This document shows, in pieces, positions 15,097-21,211 of a DNA stretch of 64,000 nt. The translations under genes were made by a program, and so were the position numbers. Source of the DNA: an uncultured Gammaproteobacteria bacterium (GTDB lineage: Bacteria; Patescibacteriota; Microgenomatia; CAZETR01; Amesbacteraceae). The notes beneath the pieces were generated by a model. It searched no databases, had not been told where the DNA came from, and worked only from the letters and a program-made list of their open reading frames with translations. The stretch is from assembly GCA_964356225.1 (NCBI GenBank), contig CAYHGA010000003.1, positions 266 through 64,265 of the forward strand, read 5' to 3'. Position 1 is the first letter of the stretch. Every line of letters starts with the position of its first letter.

Positions 15097-15260
15097 TTGT
15101 GAACGTTTTTAATAAAATTCGAACTCATTTTAAACAAAAGTTGGCTCGAACTTCTTTTTAATGAATCGGCGGCTCTCGGCGAATTTGAATTTGGTCTTTA
15201 GGGCGCTCGCAACGGGCGGGGGCGTTGCGAGCGCCCCACCTTGCGAATCTTCGATTTCTT
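15097..15260. repeat. composite repeat R1 (AT-rich module + module b/c + 14-bp perfect GC hairpin 15201-15235)
   Basis: Positions 15097-15140 resemble the start of R2 (gtgaacgttttt..attcgaac). Positions 15140-15205 are an approximately 65-bp direct repeat of 19831-19896 with 3 mismatches. The hairpin is GGGCGCTCGCAACG-GGCGGGG-CGTTGCGAGCGCCC. Confidence 0.8.
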
Positions 15261-15344
15261 TTTTGGTGATCCCGCTAGTACCTTAAACAGACTTGGAATA
15301 TGCTTATTTGTTTGGGCTAAAAAATGCATAATAAAGTACATCAA

Positions 15345-16379
15345 CTATTTTTCTTTTAATACGTAATAACTTGCTTTGCCTTTGCCTTTTCTGCTGATTA
15401 AACCCAGCTCTATTAATTTCTTAATATCCAGTGCTCTAGTCGCCTTTGCCCGATCAACTAATTTAGCATAATCACGGTGAGCGATAAATCCTTTCTCTCT
15501 TATAAATTCAAGGATTTTTAAATGATAGGGTTGCAGCTGAGTTTCTGGATTTATTCCAACCTCTGGAAGCATTTTTTGAACTCTTAAAAGTTCGTCAATA
15601 ATTCCTTCCGTAAAATATTCCATCCAATCTGTAAAATCAATTTTATCTGCCAATTCATAATAATTGCCAAATTCTCCAATAGTTTGAAAATATTTACTAA
15701 CATTTTTGTTATAGTAATTCTCAAAACTAAACAGGTTAAATGTATTGAGTCCCATTTCAGCCAGTAATACCTTTGTGGCAAGACGAGTTGCCCTGCCATT
15801 TCCATCCATAAAAGGATGGATTATTACCATTTGCTTGTGAAAAATCCCAGCTAAAATAAGCGGATCAATTTTATCTTTATTGCTATTTATAAATTTAATT
15901 AGATCTTCTAAAAGTTTTCTTACATCTTTCGTATCAGGAGGCAAATAAATAACCTTTCTGGTCCTAGGATCATTTACAACTACTGGTTTGTCTCTTAATT
16001 TTCCAGATTCAAATTTAGGTAGTAATTCCTTTGTAATCTGTTCATGGATTTTTAGAATAAGAGCAAGAGTTAATCTTATTTGCTCTTTTTCAAGCTTTTC
16101 ATTTAAGTCTTGAAGTGCATGGTTGTAGTTTAAAACTTCTTTCTCACTATCCCTAATATGTTCAGGTTTTAATTTAAGAATTTTTTTTACTTCAGTTAAA
16201 GGTAGAGGGTTACCTTCGATACTGGTTGAGGCATAAGTTGAAACCGCTCTTGCAACTTTTTCGAATTCTAATAAGACAACATGAGGAAATCTTTTATCGT
16301 TTAATTCGTTCACTAGAGTATTAATTCTCTTAATATTAGATAGGAGACGATCCGTAATGGTGTATTTTGGCTGAAACAT
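15345..16379 (-). CDS. Fic/DOC family protein (AMPylase-like), class II with N-terminal inhibitory motif
   Basis: Fic motif HPFMDGNGRATR. The N-terminal STSIEGN matches the (S/T)xxxE(G/N) inhibitory motif. Confidence 0.85.
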   Translation of the reverse strand: MFQPKYTITDRLLSNIKRINTLVNELNDKRFPHVVLLEFEKVARAVSTYASTSIEGNPLPLTEVKKILKLKPEHIRDSEKEVLNYNHALQDLNEKLEKEQIRLTLALILKIHEQITKELLPKFESGKLRDKPVVVNDPRTRKVIYLPPDTKDVRKLLEDLIKFINSNKDKIDPLILAGIFHKQMVIIHPFMDGNGRATRLATKVLLAEMGLNTFNLFSFENYYNKNVSKYFQTIGEFGNYYELADKIDFTDWMEYFTEGIIDELLRVQKMLPEVGINPETQLQPYHLKILEFIREKGFIAHRDYAKLVDRAKATRALDIKKLIELGLISRKGKGKASYYVLKEK

Positions 16380-16391
16380 ATACTCTAATTA

Positions 16392-16559
16392 TAGACGAAT
16401 ATTAGACGATTTACAAGGAGTAAAATTTCGATCCTCGTGACCAAGATGGATCAGAAATCCGTCCTCAATATTCCCCTCAAGCATTTCAAATTCATACCTT
16501 TTATCTTCCTCCTCATAAAGTTCCGGTCCCCTCAAAGGAAGCTCGGAAGGAACTCTCAT
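16392..16559 (-). CDS. small ORF (about 55 aa) immediately upstream of fic, possibly co-transcribed
   Basis: Manual translation gives MRVPSELPLRGPELYEEEDKRYEFEMLEGNIEDGFLIHLGHEDRNFTPCKSSNIRL. Its stop lies 13 nt before the fic start. It is shorter than the ORF-track cutoff. Confidence 0.3.
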
Positions 16560-16594
16560 TTAACTTCTTTTATCTATTTTTAACAATTGTTAAC

Positions 16595-16706
16595 TTGTGA
16601 ACGTTTTTGAACAAATTCGAACGTATTTCAAGTCAAACTGTTAGCTCGCCCCGCCTTGGCGAGGCTCGCAATGTGAGCGCGGCGCCCCCCACCCGCCGCG
16701 CTTCCG
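16595..16706. repeat. repeat R2, left arm of a 112-bp perfect inverted repeat flanking the MFS gene
   Basis: Positions 16595-16706 are the exact reverse complement of 18199-18310. It contains GC hairpins (GCGCGGCG-CCCCCCACC-CGCCGCGC). Confidence 0.9.
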
Positions 16707-16772
16707 TTATTTTTTGCGCGCTCGATTCTTCTCTCACTTCGTTCGAGATATGATTTTTGATATAGTGATTGT

Positions 16773-17972
16773 ATGCTAAACAACTTTAAGGGCATTACTT
16801 GGCGTTATTACGTTTTTTCTTTTCTTGCGGGATTATCTTTTTATACCGCCGCCTTAATCCCATTTTATACTAATTGGGGACACATTTCACTAACTCAAGT
16901 CCAATTCCTACAAGCATGGTTAATGTTTTGGGCTTTTGTTTTGGAAGTACCAACTGGGGTTATTGCAGATAAGTTCGGAAGAAAATATTCAGTTGCTTTA
17001 GGTTGTCTACTAACTTTCTTCTCGTTTTTGATATATGGCTCGTTTCCTAATTTTTCAGCTTTTCTCGTTGCAGAATTTTTGGCAGCTGCTGGTATGGCTC
17101 TAATGTCTGGAGCAAGTGAAGCTCTGCTATACGATTCTTTAAAAGATGAAAATAACGAAAGCAAATTTAAAAATATTTTTGGTCGGTCATTCTCTATTGG
17201 TCAAATAGCGGCAATTATTTCTGCGCCTGTTGGTGGTTTTATCGCATCTAAGTACGGTTTAAATGCTCCGATGTTGTTTACAGCGTTTCCAGTTTTAATT
17301 GCTTCCATAATTTTAGTAACTGCAAAAGAGCCATCACAAAAATATTCAAAATCAGAAAAGAAAAATTATTTAGATATTGCGAGAAACGGCGTATCTTCTT
17401 TTATTCATCATAAAGTACTAAGGTCATTGGCTTTCAACGGAATTTTGGTTTATACAGGGGTTTACTTTTTAGTATGGCTCTATCAACCCATACTACAAAA
17501 TTTGGGTGTTGCAATAATATTTTTCGGATTTATCAGAGCGTTATTCTCTTTGTCAGGAATGGTTTTTAACCATGACTTACAGCTTATTGAAAAACTATTT
17601 GGATCAAATAAACAATTTTTTAATATAACCGCAGTTTTAACTACGATATCCTTATTATTAGTTGCCGTATTCCCAAATATTATTACAGTTTTAATGGCGA
17701 TTGTTTTATTGGGTGGATTAGGTCAGGCAAGATTTACTGCATTGAATTCGTATATGAACCACCACATAGTCTCAGAACAACGCGCGACAACGTTATCAAC
17801 TATTTCAATGTTAAATAGAATTGTTCTAATTGCATTAAATCCTCTGATTGGATTCATGGCAGATCAATCAATAAGAGGAGCATTTCTATTTCTAGCATTT
17901 TTACCATTATTGGCCATTATCTTTGTTCCTATAGATTTGTATAAAAACACTACAGAGACGGTAACTTCATAA
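16773..17972 (+). CDS. MFS transporter
   Basis: 399 aa with about 12 TM helices and MFS-like motifs (GVIADKFGRK). Confidence 0.75.
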   Translation: MLNNFKGITWRYYVFSFLAGLSFYTAALIPFYTNWGHISLTQVQFLQAWLMFWAFVLEVPTGVIADKFGRKYSVALGCLLTFFSFLIYGSFPNFSAFLVAEFLAAAGMALMSGASEALLYDSLKDENNESKFKNIFGRSFSIGQIAAIISAPVGGFIASKYGLNAPMLFTAFPVLIASIILVTAKEPSQKYSKSEKKNYLDIARNGVSSFIHHKVLRSLAFNGILVYTGVYFLVWLYQPILQNLGVAIIFFGFIRALFSLSGMVFNHDLQLIEKLFGSNKQFFNITAVLTTISLLLVAVFPNIITVLMAIVLLGGLGQARFTALNSYMNHHIVSEQRATTLSTISMLNRIVLIALNPLIGFMADQSIRGAFLFLAFLPLLAIIFVPIDLYKNTTETVTS

Positions 17973-18198
17973 GTTTGACGTAAGAAAAATTATTTCTATT
18001 GTTTTTGTAAAATTATTTTTGTATATTGTAAGTGTACTCAACTTTTTCAGGTCGTCTTTTTTAATGGCCGTTCTGGACAATTTAAGGCGACTTAAGTTGA
18101 GTACAACCAGAGCGGCCATTTGAGTTTAGTAATAAGTACTTTAAAATTTTTGCGTTTTTCTTTTTCTGCTTTCAGCGGAATGTTCGAGCCGACTTTTT

Positions 18199-18310
18199 CG
18201 GAAGCGCGGCGGGTGGGGGGCGCCGCGCTCACATTGCGAGCCTCGCCAAGGCGGGGCGAGCTAACAGTTTGACTTGAAATACGTTCGAATTTGTTCAAAA
18301 ACGTTCACAA
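18199..18310. repeat. repeat R2', right arm of the 112-bp inverted repeat
   Basis: Reverse complement of 16595-16706. It is preceded at 18160-18198 by a diverged module-b copy (aaaagtcggctcgaac). Confidence 0.9.
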
Positions 18311-18407
18311 TTTTGGAAATGGAAGCAGAAGTGGGGGCAGCGCTGGCTGCGCCCCCCTCCGCAGACAGCGCTGCAAAGGCCAAATCCAAATTCGCCGAGA
18401 GCCGCCG
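18305..18407. repeat. repeat R3, left arm of a 103-bp perfect inverted repeat flanking the recombinase gene
   Basis: Positions 18305-18407 are the exact reverse complement of 19858-19960. It contains the hairpin GCAGCGCTGGCTGCG-CCCCCCTC-CGCAGACAGCGCTGC and overlaps R2' by 6 bp. Confidence 0.9.
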
Positions 18408-18462
18408 TAAAAAAAGCATGAAGAAAAACGCAAAAATTAAAGAACTTTAAGGAATATAAAAA

Positions 18463-20004
18463 ATGATTAAATATATTGCTTACTGCCGAAAATCCACAGA
18501 TGAAAAAGATAAACAGGTTTTATCTATTGAAGCGCAAATTGCCGAACTCAAGGAGTTTGCCAAAAGAGAGGGCTTAACGGTCTCTGAATTCATTACAGAA
18601 GCCAAGACTGCTAAGATTCCGGGGAGAGTACAATTTGCTGAAATCTTAAAAAGAATAGAGAAAGGACAAGCCAACGGAATATTATCGTGGCACCCCGACC
18701 GTCTCGCTAGAAATTCGATAGATGGCGGGAAAATAATTTATCTTTTGGATACTGGCAAACTCCTTGATTTAAAATTCCCCTCGTTTTGGTTTGAGTCCAC
18801 ACCACAAGGCAAATTCATGCTCTCAATCGCCTTTGGCCAATCAAAATATTATGTCGATAATCTGTCCGAAAATGTAAAGCGAGGAAACAGACAAAAACTT
18901 CGTAATGGTGTCTGGCCCAGTAAAGCACCGTATGGCTATATCAATAACCCCAAAACGAGGGGAATAGATATTGATGAAGAAAAATCAAAAATTGTTAAAA
19001 AATCATTTCAGCTTTTTGCTGATGGAAGTATTTCTTTTACGGCTATTTCTCAATTTATGTTTAAGTTTGGGATTAAGCGAGAAGGAGAAAAACCTGTAAA
19101 AGTTGGTCAAGTTAAAAATATGCTTGCCAATAAATTTTATCTGGGAATTCTCAAATACGCCGGAGAATATTATCAAGGTTCACACAAAACCTTTATCAGC
19201 AAAAAGCTGTTTGACGAAGTTCAAAAACAAGTTGAGAAAATCGAGCGACCAAGACAAAAAGGCCACAATTTCGCTTTTGCAGGTCTGGCGACCTGCGGCG
19301 AATGCGGCGCCGCAATCACGGCGGAACAACATATAAAGAAATACAAAAACGGCACCGGCCAAACTTTTATCTATTACCGCTGTACTAAAAAGTTGAAAGC
19401 CTGTACGCAAAAATATATTTCCGAATCAGATACAGAGGAGCAGTTAAGAAAAATTGTTCGTGATTGCGGCTTGCATGAAGGCTGGGAACCGTATTTTGAA
19501 AAATGGATCACCGAAGCCGAAGAAAAAGACAAACTGACCGCCGAAACGGAAAGTAAAAAACTCGATACCCAAACCCAAGAAACAGAAATCAAATTAAACC
19601 GATTGCTTGACGGCTACCTCGACCAAGTTATTGAGCCGGATATTTACAAACAAAAGAAAAATGAATTATTTGACGAAAAACTGAAGTTAGAGGAGAATAA
19701 ATCACAAATTGAGAAAAATGGAAGTTGTTGGCTCGAACCTATGAGGGAATTCGTAAATTGCGCCTTGCAGGCGCAAAAAATCGCGCGCGCAAAAAATAAT
19801 TGCCATGATTTATCAATCATGGCAAAAAAAGTCGGCTCGAACTTCTTTTTAATGAATCGGCGGCTCTCGGCGAATTTGGATTTGGCCTTTGCAGCGCTGT
19901 CTGCGGAGGGGGGCGCAGCCAGCGCTGCCCCCACTTCTGCTTCCATTTCCAAAATTGTGAGGCGGGTGGGACTCGAACCCACGACCCTTAGCTTAAAAGG
20001 CTAG
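18463..20004 (+). CDS. large serine recombinase (resolvase/invertase-type N-domain + recombinase domain + zinc ribbon)
   Basis: Catalytic-serine region YCRKSTDEKDKQ, recombinase domain and zinc ribbon CGECG...CTKK. The ORF has no stop until it has read through repeat R3' and into tRNA-Lys (C-terminal ...VGLEPTTLSLKG), so the true C-terminus is uncertain, roughly 19830-19900. Confidence 0.85.
   Translation: MIKYIAYCRKSTDEKDKQVLSIEAQIAELKEFAKREGLTVSEFITEAKTAKIPGRVQFAEILKRIEKGQANGILSWHPDRLARNSIDGGKIIYLLDTGKLLDLKFPSFWFESTPQGKFMLSIAFGQSKYYVDNLSENVKRGNRQKLRNGVWPSKAPYGYINNPKTRGIDIDEEKSKIVKKSFQLFADGSISFTAISQFMFKFGIKREGEKPVKVGQVKNMLANKFYLGILKYAGEYYQGSHKTFISKKLFDEVQKQVEKIERPRQKGHNFAFAGLATCGECGAAITAEQHIKKYKNGTGQTFIYYRCTKKLKACTQKYISESDTEEQLRKIVRDCGLHEGWEPYFEKWITEAEEKDKLTAETESKKLDTQTQETEIKLNRLLDGYLDQVIEPDIYKQKKNELFDEKLKLEENKSQIEKNGSCWLEPMREFVNCALQAQKIARAKNNCHDLSIMAKKVGSNFFLMNRRLSANLDLAFAALSAEGGAASAAPTSASISKIVRRVGLEPTTLSLKG
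19858..19960. repeat. repeat R3', right arm of the 103-bp inverted repeat
   Basis: Reverse complement of 18305-18407. It is preceded by module b at 19824-19857 and overlaps the 3' end of tRNA-Lys at 19958-19960. Confidence 0.9.
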
Positions 20005-20030
20005 TGCTCTACCAACTGAGCTACCGCCCC
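19958..20030 (-). tRNA. tRNA-Lys (anticodon UUU)
   Basis: The minus-strand sequence GGGGCGGTAGCTCAGTTGGTAGAGCACTAGCCTTTTAAGCTAAGGGTCGTGGGTTCGAGTCCCACCCGCCTCA folds as a cloverleaf with anticodon loop CTTTTAA. No CCA is encoded. Confidence 0.8.
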
Positions 20031-20058
20031 TCACTGAACTTATCAAGAGCATTTTATA

Positions 20059-20316
20059 TCAAACTTGTCTCTTTATAAACTCACGACCTCTAAACGACTT
20101 AAGTTGCTTTTCACGAGACAACGCCTCGTTTCTAGACCCAAAAACTTCTTTATAAACAAGACTCCAATTTCCACGATTGATTTTAGTATAACTTCTCTTA
20201 CTTGAAATCAATTCACCATTGTGTCTTTTAAGTCGCTTTTCCAAATTACTGGTCTGGCCTATATAGATTTTTCCACTTTTGTTCTTAATAACATAAACTA
20301 CAAATACTTTCTCCAT
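20059..20316 (-). CDS. small GIY-YIG nuclease, YhbQ/UPF0213-like
   Basis: 85 aa with VYVIKNKSGKIYIGQTSNLEKRLKRHN (GIY-YIG). The start codon abuts the shared CTTTTAAGCT anticodon-loop segment of the disrupted tRNA-Lys copy. Confidence 0.8.
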   Translation of the reverse strand: MEKVFVVYVIKNKSGKIYIGQTSNLEKRLKRHNGELISSKRSYTKINRGNWSLVYKEVFGSRNEALSREKQLKSFRGREFIKRQV

Positions 20317-20343
20317 AGCTTAAAAGTCCGCCAGCTGGCGGAT

Positions 20344-20365
20344 CTACCAACTGAGCTACCGCCCC
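20344..20365 (-). pseudogene. 5' fragment (nt 1-22) of a second, disrupted tRNA-Lys copy
   Basis: The first 22 nt are identical to the 5' acceptor and D-arm of tRNA-Lys(UUU). Then a 16-bp palindrome TCCGCCAGCTGGCGGA replaces tRNA nt 24-31, followed by the conserved CTTTTAAGCT and the GIY-YIG ATG. Confidence 0.65.
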
Positions 20366-20417
20366 TCACTGAACTTATCAAGAGCATTTTATATCAAACT
20401 TGTCTCTTTATAAACTC
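20344..20417. repeat. 74-bp perfect direct repeat (copy B) of 20009-20082 (copy A): tRNA-Lys 5' part plus 52 bp of upstream flank
   Basis: The string ctaccaactgagctaccgcccctcactgaacttatcaagagcattttatatcaaacttgtctctttataaactc occurs twice, bracketing the GIY-YIG gene. Confidence 0.9.
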
Positions 20418-20500
20418 TCTCTCGCTTGAAGCGGCCAATCAGAGTTTGAAATCGTTGTCGCGTGGATATTAAAAAACTGATAAAATTGACCTATCCATCC

Positions 20501-20572
20501 GGCTCGATCGTCTAACGGCTAGGACGCGGGGCTTTCATCCCCGCAATCGGGGTTCGATTCCCCGTCGAGTCA
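20501..20572 (+). tRNA. tRNA-Glu (anticodon UUC)
   Basis: GGCTCGATCGTCTAACGGCTAGGACGCGGGGCTTTCATCCCCGCAATCGGGGTTCGATTCCCCGTCGAGTCA; anticodon loop CTTTCAT. Confidence 0.8.
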
Positions 20573-20575
20573 CCC

Positions 20576-21211
20576 ATGAAAGTCTTTCTTGTCAGGCACG
20601 GGCGGTCCGCAGACCGTGAAGCTAAAGTTCGCCAATCATTAAACACTCCTCTTTCCCAATCCGGGATCAATCAGGCACAAGCCGTAGTCGACAGACTCAA
20701 ATCTGAGGAAATTGACATCATTTATTCCAGTCCCTATCTCAGAGCCGCGCAAACAGCTGAAATAATATCTAAAGGGCTAAATCTTCCCCTGCAAGTGCAT
20801 GATCTTACCAGAGAATTAGCCCGGCCCTCTATGGACGGTTTAGATTATCAGGATCCTTTGAATCTCGAGTTTATGAATCAGCTTAAAGAAAACCTTTTTA
20901 ACATAGATTGGAAGTTTCCTGCAGATAGTGAATCATTCAGAGATGTTGCGGCCAGGGCTAGTAAGTTCAGAGATTTTCTTATATCAAGCCCCTTAGAGCA
21001 AAATATATTAGTGATCTCCCACGGTTTTCAAATCACCTGTTTTATTGGTGTGTGTATATTAGGAGATAATTACGATCCACTTACGTTTATGAAACTTGTA
21101 CGCTCTTTATCTATCGAAAACACTTCCATTTCAGAAATGGAATATTTCCCCGAAGATAAACGTTGGAAAGTAAAGCTCATTAATGATCATTTACACATCC
21201 AGGGTATATGA
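20576..21211 (+). CDS. histidine phosphatase family protein (phosphoglycerate-mutase-like)
   Basis: N-terminal RHG motif (LVRHGRS) and the SHG region. Confidence 0.7.
   Translation: MKVFLVRHGRSADREAKVRQSLNTPLSQSGINQAQAVVDRLKSEEIDIIYSSPYLRAAQTAEIISKGLNLPLQVHDLTRELARPSMDGLDYQDPLNLEFMNQLKENLFNIDWKFPADSESFRDVAARASKFRDFLISSPLEQNILVISHGFQITCFIGVCILGDNYDPLTFMKLVRSLSIENTSISEMEYFPEDKRWKVKLINDHLHIQGI

Follow-up and report, generated by a model that had tools for sequence, protein, structure and literature searches.

Putative Ssn-like GIY-YIG nuclease and hairpin cassettes nested in partly duplicated tRNA genes, mostly of Patescibacteria-labelled genomes

The window, which denotes the whole 64-kb stretch of DNA that was analysed, carries an intact and presumably functional tRNA-Lys(UUU) gene on its minus strand (19957..20030; ARAGORN; Rfam tRNA, 73.1 bits). 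This gene is a regenerated copy and lies downstream of an 85-aa single-domain GIY-YIG ORF (20059..20316, minus strand). The ORF stop codon and the tRNA 5' end are separated by a spacer of 28 nt (20031..20058, minus strand), and the corresponding spacers of relatives measure 2-40 nt. Based on sequence comparison within the window, an exact direct repeat of 75 nt was found at 20008-20082 and 20343-20417 (spacing 335), and each copy contains tRNA-Lys nt 1-23 together with 52 nt of upstream flank. Read along the minus strand, the 5' part of the locus runs from the 52-nt flank through tRNA nt 1-23, a palindrome standing for nt 24-31 and the string CTTTTAAGCT (nt 32-41) to the ATG; the 3' part consists of the GIY-YIG ORF, the 52-nt flank again, which overlaps the ORF end, and the complete tRNA-Lys. 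The flank thus includes the final 8 sense codons of the ORF and its stop codon, plus the spacer.

The copy of tRNA-Lys nt 1-23 upstream of the ORF (20343..20365, minus strand), a false tRNA front, was taken as the displaced original 5' part of the gene, based on the exact repeat and on the promoter found in relatives. It is followed by the palindrome TCCGCCAGCTGGCGGA (20327..20342; TCCGCC-AGCT-GGCGGA), a potential hairpin recognised in the sequence and in the leaders of relatives, and by the tRNA-derived CTTTTAAGCT (20317..20326, minus strand), which forms part of a 14-nt repeat, is the same in two relatives (L005 and L008) and corresponds to the anticodon loop and the first part of the 3' strand of the anticodon stem. 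This string abuts the ATG directly, so that the hairpin sits 10 nt upstream of the start codon. A promoter scan detected the promoter-like element TTTATA-17-TAAAAT in both flank copies on the minus strand, once within the second copy (20414-20386) and once inside the ORF 3' end upstream of the intact tRNA (20051..20079). The divergent tRNA-Glu(UUC) gene at 20501..20574 (plus strand; ARAGORN) is a conserved neighbour which marks the orthologous locus in relatives.

The first-pass annotation had described a 74-bp repeat at 20009-20082 and 20344-20417; the duplication was recovered, and its length was corrected to 75 nt, with a start one base earlier. The tRNA-Lys(UUU), the 85-aa ORF and the 16-nt palindrome that it listed were all found, with coordinates differing by one base at most, and the replacement of nt 24-31 by the palindrome, with the anticodon-loop string running into the ATG, was likewise seen in the sequence. 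The arrangement is genuine and not an assembly artefact, as it recurs in four independent metagenome contigs (L001-L004) that belong to the same population. The second flank copy (20366..20417, minus strand) is absent from L005 and L007, and intact tandem units are present in L071 and L077; the 52-nt duplication is lineage-specific and looks like the relic of a tandem unit such as that of L071, and is not the target-site duplication that had been suggested. In an Rfam scan of 19700-20700 at E up to 10, the two tRNAs were the sole hits apart from sub-threshold noise, and the leader matched no family; the fold of the whole leader RNA was of unremarkable stability (z = -0.75), and no intrinsic terminator was called by a pattern scan. 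A second cassette was not found in the window, where the sole other GIY-YIG match is a UvrC-like ORF.

The Pfam GIY-YIG domain (PF01541, E=1.5e-16) covers residues 6-74 of the 85 aa, with no further domain above threshold, and family members are 78-131 aa long. Residues Y8, Y18, G20, R28, H32 and E69 were invariant across 30 aligned family sequences, and selection on the protein is purifying in relatives (dN/dS 0.12, with dS saturated). The Ssn family consists of single-domain GIY-YIG nucleases; its characterised members are reported to bind a hairpin (NTS/SRM) in single-stranded DNA and to cleave immediately upstream of this hairpin (Chenal et al. 2025, PMC11893778). Their limit of about 150 aa for a single domain lacking a DNA-binding domain accommodates the 85-aa protein, and their catalytic Tyr/Tyr/Glu (Y6, Y17 and E64 of SsnA) is present throughout the family, in which Y8, Y18 and E69 align with the corresponding residues of NTS-flanked homologues. 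A flanking hairpin repeat covarying with the protein occurs in the window and in the leaders of about 80 relatives. Repeats on both sides of the gene or in many genomic copies were not seen, since the 64-kb window holds a single hairpin and a tRNA occupies the downstream side; several hairpins are present in some relatives (L044 and L059). In the plasmid database only two matches to the protein were obtained, and both genes are flanked by textbook NTS repeats.

When the family profile was compared with these two NTS-flanked proteins by hhalign, E values of 7.6e-14 and 4.4e-13 over 82-85 columns were obtained, as against 2.2e-8 over 67 columns for E. coli YhbQ, 4.6e-8 for the UPF0213 structure 1ywl and 1.3e-11 for a tRNA-free CPR GIY-YIG protein. 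The NTS-flanked homologues stand here as proxies for SsnA and CDD cd10448, and the split from UPF0213-type proteins is not sharp (1e-13 versus 1e-11 to 2e-8). The protein is best described as Ssn-like, with blurred boundaries; the term "YhbQ-like", which had been applied to it, holds at the superfamily level and not beyond, and the UPF0213/YhbQ proteins (YhbQ, EF2693 and BH0048) gave weaker and shorter matches than the Ssn type. The linker and DNA-binding domain of homing endonucleases are absent from the 85 aa, which hold the catalytic domain alone; the NCBIfam group I intron endonuclease model reached 28 bits against a cut-off of 56, and the defence-system and NCBIfam models produced only sub-threshold nuclease or homing-endonuclease matches.

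The same architecture recurs beside tRNA genes elsewhere. Relatives of the protein (51-64% identical) are encoded at 80 genome loci, mostly labelled Patescibacteria; at 69 of these, a tRNA on the same strand was found at the ORF end, starting -45 to +60 nt from the end of the ORF match. These tRNAs were Lys-UUU (29), Lys-CUU (21), Asn-GUU (17) and His-GUG (2). At three more of the 80 loci, an intact tRNA-Lys directly precedes the ORF. A tRNA front that usually matches the local tRNA, and is broken by a hairpin, is present in about 80 ORF leaders. The architecture was also observed at Glu and Cys tRNA genes, one ORF abuts tRNA-Gln, and at one locus (L086) a cassette and a group I intron share a single tRNA-Asn. 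The ORFs of cassettes are sometimes extended by gene callers into the adjoining tRNA sequence. On the best reading of these comparisons, the window locus would be one copy of a widespread cassette family nested in tRNA genes of mostly Patescibacteria-labelled genomes. Within open-access papers and preprints, GIY-YIG cassettes nested in Patescibacteria tRNA genes were not found described; such an absence is no proof, and the tRNA nesting of an Ssn-like module appears to be new.

The first-pass annotation had proposed a search for the palindrome elsewhere. In the window it is unique even when 2 mismatches are allowed (a match in 0 of 100 shuffles), and in the roughly 80 leaders of relatives it recurs as a conserved, covarying hairpin. 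The collected hairpins number 81 in 31 distinct forms, with the consensus TCCGCC-N(2-4)-GGCGGA and a loop of 2 to 4 nt. The stem was 98.9% paired, with double compensatory changes in 5 of its 6 pairs, a result equalled by none of 500 shuffles; this conservation and covariation ruled out the palindrome as mere filler. G.U pairs were absent among the 186 stem cells of these forms, and the loop variants come as reverse-complement pairs (AGCC/GGCT and AACT/AGTT). The covariation, the lack of G.U pairs, the strand-symmetric loops and the variable loop length are better explained by a hairpin formed in DNA than by an RNA element or a rigid binding site for a dimer. Because the hairpin lies downstream of the ORF in three reversed layouts (L015, L056 and L057), it does not act as a 5'-UTR regulator.

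Hairpin variants track protein clades, and the 16-mer is identical in the window and L005 although dS is saturated. We propose that the hairpin is the cognate single-stranded DNA site of the nuclease. It was found at no fewer than five different positions in tRNA copies, and in L084 one hairpin is nested within another, so the hairpin may itself be a separately mobile module. In L044, L059 and L064, arrays are built from hairpin-bearing units that lack an ORF. The hairpin of a tRNA-Cys-linked copy (L072) resembles an NTS (TCCCGC-AGA-GCGGGA, then C), and a U-tract after the hairpin is confined to the Lys-UUU types. Other short GC hairpins of the window are situated outside tRNA sequence, away from any GIY-YIG gene, and appear fortuitous. 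The 16-mer also occurs 55 times in IMG/VR viral contigs; none of the 55 sites has a GIY-YIG relative within 200 nt or a predicted tRNA within 500 nt, and they were treated as chance or unrelated palindromes.

Comparison of orthologous loci, also suggested in the first-pass annotation, identified an empty site (L089/L090) with an uninterrupted tRNA-Lys in conserved synteny. The tRNA pair of this relative is inverted, and gain versus loss is thus not formally established; several further relatives (L091-L097) are rearranged and uninformative as orthologous loci. The uninterrupted tRNA-Lys of the empty site (L090) is preceded by the promoter TATAATTAG-N9-GA, which is also found ahead of the false tRNA front at the filled sites L005, L007 and L098. 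Since the false front keeps the promoter of the empty-site tRNA, it was identified as the displaced original 5' part; the promoter comparison and the empty site therefore agree with the earlier proposal that the nuclease gene lies between this displaced part and a regenerated intact copy. That proposal had been set against a conserved ancestral arrangement with no empty sites and a housekeeping gene adjoining tRNA-Lys universally. One half of this alternative holds, since relatives share the arrangement; the other half does not, as empty sites occur and the gene is no universal housekeeping neighbour of tRNA-Lys.

A different cassette lineage occupies the same tRNA in L098/L099 (protein 62.8% identical, hairpin TCCGGCTAGCCGGA), a genome about equally related by its neighbouring gene (74%, versus 72% for L007). 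Protein clades sharing one hairpin variant span Lys-UUU and Lys-CUU genes. Synteny is conserved among the window, L005 and L007. The cassette dates back at least to their common ancestor; this age and the strong conservation of the protein would also suit a domesticated gene passed on vertically.

Next to the tRNA-Lys, and overlapping its 3' half, lies the ORF of a large serine recombinase (18463-20004), and a low-GC island is located at about 15-20 kb in the window. These features would suit an att duplication made by the recombinase or its island; the first-pass annotation had spoken of an insertion footprint such as a target duplication or att reconstitution. Chance slippage or an assembly artefact belongs with the same explanation. 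The syntenic L007 carries the cassette without the recombinase island, about 80 other loci share the architecture and palindrome with no recombinase nearby, and island and duplication are on opposite sides of the tRNA, 3' for the island and 5' for the duplication. An isolated footprint, an att reconstitution and a recombinase-made duplication were rejected on these grounds, and with the agreement of the four contigs we regard this whole explanation as hardly credible and already refuted by the comparative loci.

We consider it probable, with appreciable room for doubt, that the locus represents an Ssn-like nuclease and hairpin module lodged in a partly duplicated tRNA gene and gained, lost and moved by recombination, a mechanism inferred from sequence comparison. 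The cassette consists of the GIY-YIG gene, one hairpin in a truncated tRNA copy and the complete adjoining tRNA, which would keep the host gene functional. The original tRNA-Lys 5' part (nt 1-23, the hairpin and nt 32-41) now serves as the ORF leader, and an earlier tandem unit may have left the 52-nt duplication, whose relic would supply a promoter-like element upstream of the leader. The ORF is probably expressed from strong tRNA promoters. The nuclease is predicted to act on the hairpin as its cognate single-stranded site; gain, loss, amplification and movement among tRNA genes may proceed by homologous recombination or gene conversion via the tRNA-derived repeats flanking the hairpin, and are probably stimulated by nuclease breaks in tRNA DNA that is highly transcribed and transiently single-stranded. 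The module could be either purely selfish or domesticated, e.g., to restrict incoming single-stranded DNA as in Neisseria.

Several points count against this reading. The hairpin repeats of Ssn genes are typically longer, flank the gene on both sides and recur many times in the genome, and the window holds one hairpin of 16 nt. Enzymes of the GIY-YIG type hydrolyse DNA and have no means of rejoining it, so a cut within their own element would normally favour loss over spread. The intact tRNA copy in the same genome also sits badly with simple target immunity. More tentatively, and in our estimate less likely than not, the cassettes may form an unrecognised class of mobile element parasitising tRNA genes, in which a hairpin-specific single-stranded DNA nuclease breaks its own hairpin in highly transcribed tRNA DNA and the conserved flanking tRNA sequence provides universal homology arms. 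Copying would then extend to other tRNA genes and other species, possibly via natural transformation, and the essential gene would survive because the cassette always duplicates part of the tRNA.

The main competitor, which we think unlikely but worth serious weight, is a domesticated host operon: a vertically inherited housekeeping or genome-maintenance gene co-transcribed with the tRNA, with the tRNA-like leader and its hairpin as a cis-regulatory or processing element of the RNA and no mobility of its own. Purifying selection as strong as dN/dS 0.12, the spread of the architecture across many Patescibacteria groups, the synteny kept among the window, L005 and L007 and the tight packing of the ORF against the tRNA, behind tRNA promoters, all agree with it. 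It is difficult to reconcile with the empty orthologous site, with the second cassette lineage that holds this tRNA in a genome of similar relatedness, with the involvement of at least seven tRNA species, and with tandem units and ORF-less hairpin arrays; an RNA-level element is further opposed by the reversed layouts, the 0 G.U pairs in 186 stem cells, the strand-symmetric loop variants and a leader without an Rfam match. The lack of G.U pairs, together with the fact that the characterised Ssn protein binds no RNA, also makes very improbable an RNA-decoy module of the kind seen in type III toxin-antitoxin systems, in which transcripts of the hairpin-bearing false tRNA would neutralise the adjacent toxic nuclease. 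Tandem units of this kind do adjoin the nuclease gene in L044 and L059, and CUUUU follows the hairpin in Lys-UUU types, but most loci have a single unit, the Lys-CUU and Asn types have no U-tract, and the terminator scan was negative.

Presence/absence differences and movement between tRNA genes would equally be expected of a free-standing homing endonuclease that cuts the double-stranded intact tRNA gene of cassette-free genomes, with break repair copying the cassette in. The hairpin, which always lies within the truncated tRNA copy, would then only destroy the recognition site there, giving immunity, or block deletion by single-strand annealing, and SegB offers an example of cutting inside tRNA genes (PMC2330249; PMC13096335). 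We judge this improbable, more so than the domesticated operon: the 85-aa protein has no DNA-binding domain, the supposed target persists beside the gene in every cassette, a disrupting insert needs no conserved covarying sequence, and the nearest characterised relatives cut single-stranded DNA only.

The Ssn family was characterised only in 2025 (PMC11893778), and these loci would provide a second, very different setting for it, i.e., an essential, highly transcribed tRNA gene in some of the most genome-reduced bacteria. Dozens of natural nuclease/hairpin pairs with compensatory stem variants, in roughly ten stem types, represent candidate specificity pairs for single-stranded DNA tools. The cassettes would also explain why truncated tRNA-like sequences and small ORFs annotated as "GIY-YIG nuclease family" occur beside Patescibacteria tRNA genes. 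If they are mobile, they illustrate how partial gene duplication allows a selfish element to settle in an essential gene with neither an intron nor an integrase.

Among known systems, the Ssn nucleases come closest. Characterised members act on single-stranded DNA only, with an orientation-specific cut a few nt upstream of the hairpin and no RNA binding, and 42% of Ssn homologues have repeats on both sides of the gene; tRNA genes and Patescibacteria are unmentioned in that paper (PMC11893778). The CPR proteins, which are putative nucleases, share with them a small single GIY-YIG domain (94 aa in Ssn, 85 aa in the window) with catalytic Tyr/Tyr/Glu and a gene adjoining a conserved GC-rich hairpin that covaries with the protein clade and is free in loop sequence and length, and the best plasmid-database matches of the CPR family are NTS-flanked genes. 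They differ in that the hairpin of the window has 16 nt, is usually single in cassettes and lies inside a truncated tRNA copy, with the gene set against an intact tRNA and no repeat expansion within the window, and in the stem, which is TCCGCC here versus TTCCCGC in Ssn. The UPF0213/YhbQ proteins (PDB 1ywl and 1zg2), the closest solved structures, share fold and size, and no tRNA gene was found inside the 8-kb region examined around E. coli K-12 yhbQ.

In REP/BIME elements with RAYT and in IS200/IS605, HUH transesterases recognise hairpins in single-stranded DNA. The cassettes resemble them in tying a small nuclease gene to short palindromic DNA hairpins, whose recognition here is predicted, and the nested hairpin of L084 and the multiple insertion positions suggest that the hairpin itself moves. 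The enzyme, however, has the fold of a GIY-YIG hydrolase and not of an HUH transesterase, so cut-and-rejoin transposition is not expected, and the hairpins of the cassettes are restricted to sequence derived from tRNA. Genomic islands and prophages with tRNA genes as integration sites span kilobases, use integrases and duplicate the tRNA 3' part. As in the cassettes, duplication of a gene part keeps the host tRNA intact and leaves a truncated copy at the other boundary; the cassette, in contrast, is about 335 bp long, duplicates the 5' part, encodes no recombinase and has a conserved hairpin in the truncated copy.

Group I introns, some with HNH endonuclease genes, occupy tRNA genes of Patescibacteria (PMC13011429). 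As selfish elements, they exploit tRNA-Asn and further tRNA genes of the phylum in which the cassettes mostly occur. Splicing rescues the host gene there, and duplication does so in the cassette; the downstream tRNA of the window is complete, and no group I intron core was matched in 19700-20700 at E up to 10. SegB, a free-standing GIY-YIG homing endonuclease encoded in the tRNA cluster of T-even phages, cuts within tRNA genes (PMC2330249; PMC13096335) and drives recombination-dependent tandem amplification of tRNA-plus-nuclease units (PMC13096335). It differs as a multi-domain phage enzyme acting on double-stranded DNA, and it lacks a hairpin, a truncated tRNA copy that bears one and any isotype preference. 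The placement of a nuclease gene among tRNA genes and the tandem units, here those of L071 and L077 and the relic in the window, are common to both, and the amplification driven by SegB is a precedent for GIY-YIG-driven amplification of tRNA units that supports the recombination reading.

The intact tRNA-Lys(UUU) gene was located at 19957-20030 on the minus strand by ARAGORN and Rfam. Its nt 1-23, together with 52 nt of upstream flank, formed an exact 75-nt direct repeat (20008-20082 and 20343-20417; spacing 335), and a GIY-YIG ORF of 85 amino acid residues (20059-20316, minus strand; Pfam GIY-YIG, E=1.5e-16) was found between the repeat copies. The upstream copy carried the palindrome TCCGCCAGCTGGCGGA (20327-20342) in place of tRNA nt 24-31, directly followed in the minus-strand reading by CTTTTAAGCT (tRNA nt 32-41) and the ATG of the ORF. 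On the minus strand the order was the 52-nt flank, tRNA nt 1-23, the palindrome, CTTTTAAGCT, the ATG and ORF, the 52-nt flank again and the complete tRNA; the ORF ended within the downstream flank, which held its final eight sense codons and its stop codon. The first-pass annotation had described the duplication as 74 nt long, which is corrected here to 75 nt, and was otherwise borne out on the ORF between the copies, the palindrome, the anticodon-loop segment running into the ATG and the intact downstream tRNA. It had also proposed a search for the palindrome elsewhere, and TCCGCCAGCTGGCGGA proved unique within the window, with no second copy at up to two mismatches and none in any of the shuffles. 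The identical arrangement was found in four independent Hainich groundwater metagenome contigs, and therefore it is not an assembly artefact. The additional 52-nt duplication was missing in two contigs from other genomes, L005 and L007, and it looks like the relic of a tandem cassette unit. It carries TTTATA-17-TAAAAT, so that a promoter-like element precedes the leader and the intact tRNA alike.

The nearest protein relatives were 69-74% identical, and their contigs shared the design. In L005/L006 and L008, tRNA-Lys nt 1-23 lie behind a promoter and lead into the identical 16-nt palindrome and then the anticodon-loop segment; the ORF comes next, and after a short spacer it is followed by an intact tRNA-Lys. 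The tRNA sequence of L008 is divergent (GGGTCGG...), and its false tRNA front (the truncated 5' copy in the ORF leader) follows that local sequence. L007, whose leader is decayed, shared the gene order of the window (tRNA-Glu, cassette, tRNA-Lys, glycosyl hydrolase, PMT_2, L19). A survey of one genome per species yielded 80 loci with relatives 51-64% identical, mostly labelled Patescibacteria. In 69 of the 80, a same-strand tRNA began -45 to +60 nt from the end of the ORF match (29 Lys-UUU, 21 Lys-CUU, 17 Asn-GUU and 2 His-GUG); the design is conserved and is not an isolated insertion footprint of the kind suggested in the first-pass annotation. Three other loci had an intact tRNA-Lys immediately upstream of the ORF instead, and the remaining eight, with no tRNA within 60 nt of the ORF, included loci with contig ends or masked sequence, loci whose tRNA-Asn gene is interrupted after the anticodon, and arrays in which the ORF is set apart from the tRNA. 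Among distant paralogues, the cassette design was seen at tRNA-Glu and tRNA-Cys, and one ORF abutted tRNA-Gln directly. Typical cassettes with CPR-like tRNA clusters were also present on contigs binned as Gammaproteobacteria, Pseudomonadales, Bdellovibrionales, Nevskiaceae or Thermodesulfovibrionales (L009, L018, L028, L036 and others), reflecting either mislabelled or contaminated bins or genuine occurrence outside Patescibacteria.

The layout was variable. The order was reversed in L015, L056 and L057, where an intact tRNA-Lys was followed by the ORF and by a hairpin-bearing copy with the entire tRNA 3' part; the hairpin is thus a part of the truncated tRNA copy rather than of a 5' UTR. Tandem cassette units were found in L071 and L077, and ORF-less arrays of hairpin-bearing false tRNA units in L044, L059 and L064. 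The tRNA-Asn downstream of the cassette was interrupted after the anticodon in L086 (1750-2340) and L077 (from ~2287 onward), a position that fits the 35/36 introns of a survey of Patescibacteria tRNAs (PMC13011429). In L086 the interruption was an Rfam group I intron (51.5 bits) preceded by an ORF read as HNH-like, and two different selfish elements are thus stacked on one tRNA gene. Gene callers ran some ORFs into the adjoining tRNA sequence (relative proteins P0004, P0008, P0012 and P0032), for example with a C-terminal '...VGVAQ' from tRNA nt 3-14 or an N-terminal 'GSSPS' from the T-arm; because of such extensions, database lengths for the protein family are partly artefacts.

The cassette proteins are 78-131 amino acid residues long, with Y8, Y18, G20, R28, H32 and E69 invariant, and the protein is under selection (dN/dS 0.12, L005 vs L007). 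The nearest solved structures were UPF0213 EF2693 and BH0048, then the I-TevI catalytic domain and SLX1, and no curated NCBIfam or PADLOC family was reached by the cassette protein. Small single-domain GIY-YIG proteins of CDD cd10448, named Ssn, are site-specific ssDNA endonucleases that are inactive on dsDNA and RNA (Chenal et al. 2025, PMC11893778). Their binding site is a hairpin repeat (NTS in Neisseria, SRM in general), and they cut a few nucleotides upstream of it; the hairpin loop is dispensable, and the repeats typically flank the ssn gene (PMC11893778). When the window protein was searched by tblastn against 72,556 plasmid records, two hits were obtained, in Azospirillum lipoferum and Photobacterium, both flanked by textbook NTS repeats. 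The family profile matched these two proteins at E 7.6e-14 and 4.4e-13 over 82-85 columns. The label 'YhbQ-like' in the first-pass annotation holds at superfamily level only: E. coli YhbQ matched at E 2.2e-8 over 67 columns, and the NTS-flanked proteins match better. A tRNA-free CPR GIY-YIG protein scored 1.3e-11, so the family boundary is not sharp. We conclude that the ORF encodes a putative Ssn-like nuclease, placed by its NTS-flanked homologues, with no sharp boundary to other GIY-YIG proteins; very probably, the palindrome serves as the cognate hairpin of this nuclease. A tRNA-Cys-linked paralogue in L072 has an NTS-like hairpin, TCCCGC-AGA-GCGGGA, followed by C. On the Azospirillum lipoferum plasmid AZO_p3 (L155, 1069-1690), a GIY-YIG gene of 97 codons with four NTS-type repeats in two inverted pairs lies between sufB and sufC, within the Fe-S cluster operon, a clear example of an NTS-ssn-NTS unit that behaves like an intergenic insertion.

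Hairpins of the type TCCGCC-N(2-4)-GGCGGA within tRNA-derived sequence were identified in 81 ORF leaders among the loci examined, and the surrounding sequence was that of the local tRNA in most loci. Lys-type leaders consist of nt 1-23, the hairpin for nt 24-31, nt 32 to ~42-59 and the ATG, and Asn-type leaders (also some at Lys genes) of nt 1-13 or 1-14, a hairpin in the D-loop and then GGTAGAGC... The 81 hairpins represented 31 distinct forms, in which 98.9% of stem positions were paired. Compensatory double changes were found in five of the six stem pairs (TCCGGC/GCCGGA, TCCGTC/GACGGA, TCAGGC/GCCTGA, TTCGCC/GGCGAA, CCCGNC/GNCGGG and TCCCGC/GCGGGA), and the observed values were reached by none of 500 shuffles. 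No G.U pairs occurred in the stems of the 31 forms, the loop varied from 2 to 4 nt, and loop variants formed reverse-complement pairs (AGCC/GGCT, AACT/AGTT). We take the constrained structure to be a hairpin in DNA: G.U pairs would be expected of an RNA element, and a rigid dsDNA dimer-binding site is at odds with the varying spacing. The 16-mer is identical in the window and L005 despite saturated synonymous sites in the ORF (pS 0.76) and is therefore under selection. Second hairpins (TTCGCC-N4-GGCGAA or CCTGCC-N4-GGCAGG) were seen at another position of the same false tRNA in the leaders of L007, L026, L053, L021 and L048, and one hairpin lies within the loop of another in L084 (TCCGCC[TCCGCCGGTTGGCGGA]TGGCGGA), which suggests a short palindrome insertable independently of the ORF. 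Native nt 27-32 of tRNA-Lys(CUU) in L031, L032 and L039 read TCCGCC (the anticodon-stem 5' strand plus C32); the Lys-UUU gene of the window has CTAGCC there, so TCCGCC is foreign to it. The hairpin may have arisen by inverted duplication of the Lys(CUU) stem and then reached tRNAs in which it is not native.

Orthologous loci were located via the neighbouring glycosyl-hydrolase gene. The first-pass annotation had set an ancestral arrangement with no empty sites against the insertion reading; the arrangement is indeed conserved in relatives, but an empty site exists. L089/L090, on a 775-kb contig (neighbour gene 75% identical), showed DnaE, L19, hydrolase, tRNA-Glu, a 138-nt spacer, an uninterrupted tRNA-Lys(UUU), RuvC and DUF192, and neither a GIY-YIG gene nor the hairpin was found at this locus. 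The divergent tRNA-Glu/tRNA-Lys pair is inverted as a block in this genome (L090 4586-4869 vs window 19957-20574), and it keeps the glycosyl hydrolase and RuvC as neighbours. L098/L099 (neighbour gene 74% identical) were filled, with a protein 62.8% identical to that of the window and the hairpin TCCGGCTAGCCGGA; L007, by comparison, comes from a similarly distant host but has a cassette protein with 74% identity. By these identities L098/L099 represent a different cassette lineage at the same tRNA. The promoter TATAATTAG-N9-GA lies 5' of the empty-site tRNA-Lys and is conserved 5' of the false tRNA front in L005, L007 and L098; since the promoter is retained, the false front is the 5' part of the original gene and the downstream intact tRNA the regenerated copy. 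In the neighbour-joining protein tree, Asn-linked cassettes formed one clade, and those with TCCGGC/TCAGGC hairpins and 3-nt loops formed another that spans Lys-UUU and Lys-CUU genes; hairpin and ORF are thus co-inherited, as a unit that has moved from one tRNA gene to another. The tRNA-Lys(CUU) of the window, in a tight Arg-Lys-Gln cluster at 45.5-45.8 kb, has no cassette, and in other genomes a cassette lies between tRNA-Arg and tRNA-Lys(CUU).

On the 3' side of tRNA-Lys, a low-GC (0.33-0.42) island of 4.9 kb (~15100-19960) extends to the glycosyl-hydrolase gene. It contains a Fic-domain gene (15345-16379, minus strand; PADLOC SoFic defence model, E 1.7e-46), an MFS transporter gene and a large CcrB/XisF-like serine recombinase ORF (18463-20004, plus strand) with Resolvase, Recombinase and Zn-ribbon domains. 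As L007 has the cassette and lacks this stretch, the island is a separate insertion. A perfect 103-nt inverted repeat (18305-18407 and 19858-19960) brackets the recombinase gene; its right arm overlaps the tRNA-Lys 3' end by 4 nt, and the recombinase ORF reads through into the tRNA antisense strand. In the strain-variant contig L004, the recombinase gene gives way to a different, uncharacterised ORF of 161 residues beyond the common right-hand repeat, and the far side matches the window at only ~80%; the recombinase segment could be an invertible or exchangeable cassette. Further copies of the repeat family (15132-15199, 16592-16706, 18199-18313 and 19824-19890; L007 1-55) occur in the window as inverted pairs that flank the MFS transporter gene and lie next to the Fic gene. 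In L007, a copy of the GC-rich core GGGGGGCGCAGCCAGCGCTGCCCCC is also present after the tRNA-Glu 3' end, and the family looks like a dispersed terminator-like or miniature-element repeat of this lineage.

Several origins were weighed. Duplication of an att site by an integrase, which the first-pass annotation had offered as att reconstitution, was rejected because L007 carries the cassette and the recombinase island is missing there. A modular homing endonuclease was likewise rejected, as the cassette protein has no DNA-binding domain, and an intron was rejected by the Rfam scan of 19700-20700. A domesticated role is possible, and the restriction of incoming single-stranded DNA, as in Neisseria, is one candidate. 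Under the mechanism proposed here, the nuclease would recognise the hairpin in single-stranded DNA; tRNA genes undergo heavy transcription and contain many stems. Its breaks would promote exchange between the tRNA-derived repeats that flank the hairpin, by homologous recombination or gene conversion, and the position of the exchange would decide among gain, precise loss, tandem amplification, a reversed layout and conversion of a tRNA copy to the hairpin form. There is a substantial chance that the cassettes are parasites of tRNA genes that form a mobile-element class of their own.

Neither tRNA nor Patescibacteria is mentioned in the Ssn paper (PMC11893778), the Patescibacteria tRNA-intron survey (PMC13011429) does not mention the cassettes, and no other description of such tRNA-nested GIY-YIG cassettes was found in the open-access full-text literature. 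An Ssn-like gene with its hairpin nested in a partly duplicated tRNA gene, recurring across Patescibacteria, thus appears to be new. For the phage GIY-YIG endonuclease SegB, co-location with tRNA genes is statistically supported, and the enzyme cuts within these genes (PMC13096335; PMC2330249). The tandem amplification of tRNA-plus-segB units that it drives depends on recombination (PMC13096335), and SegB is thus a precedent for nuclease-driven recombination of tRNA units. The cassette module would work like an Ssn/SRM pair, and in its association with tRNA genes the cassette resembles SegB.
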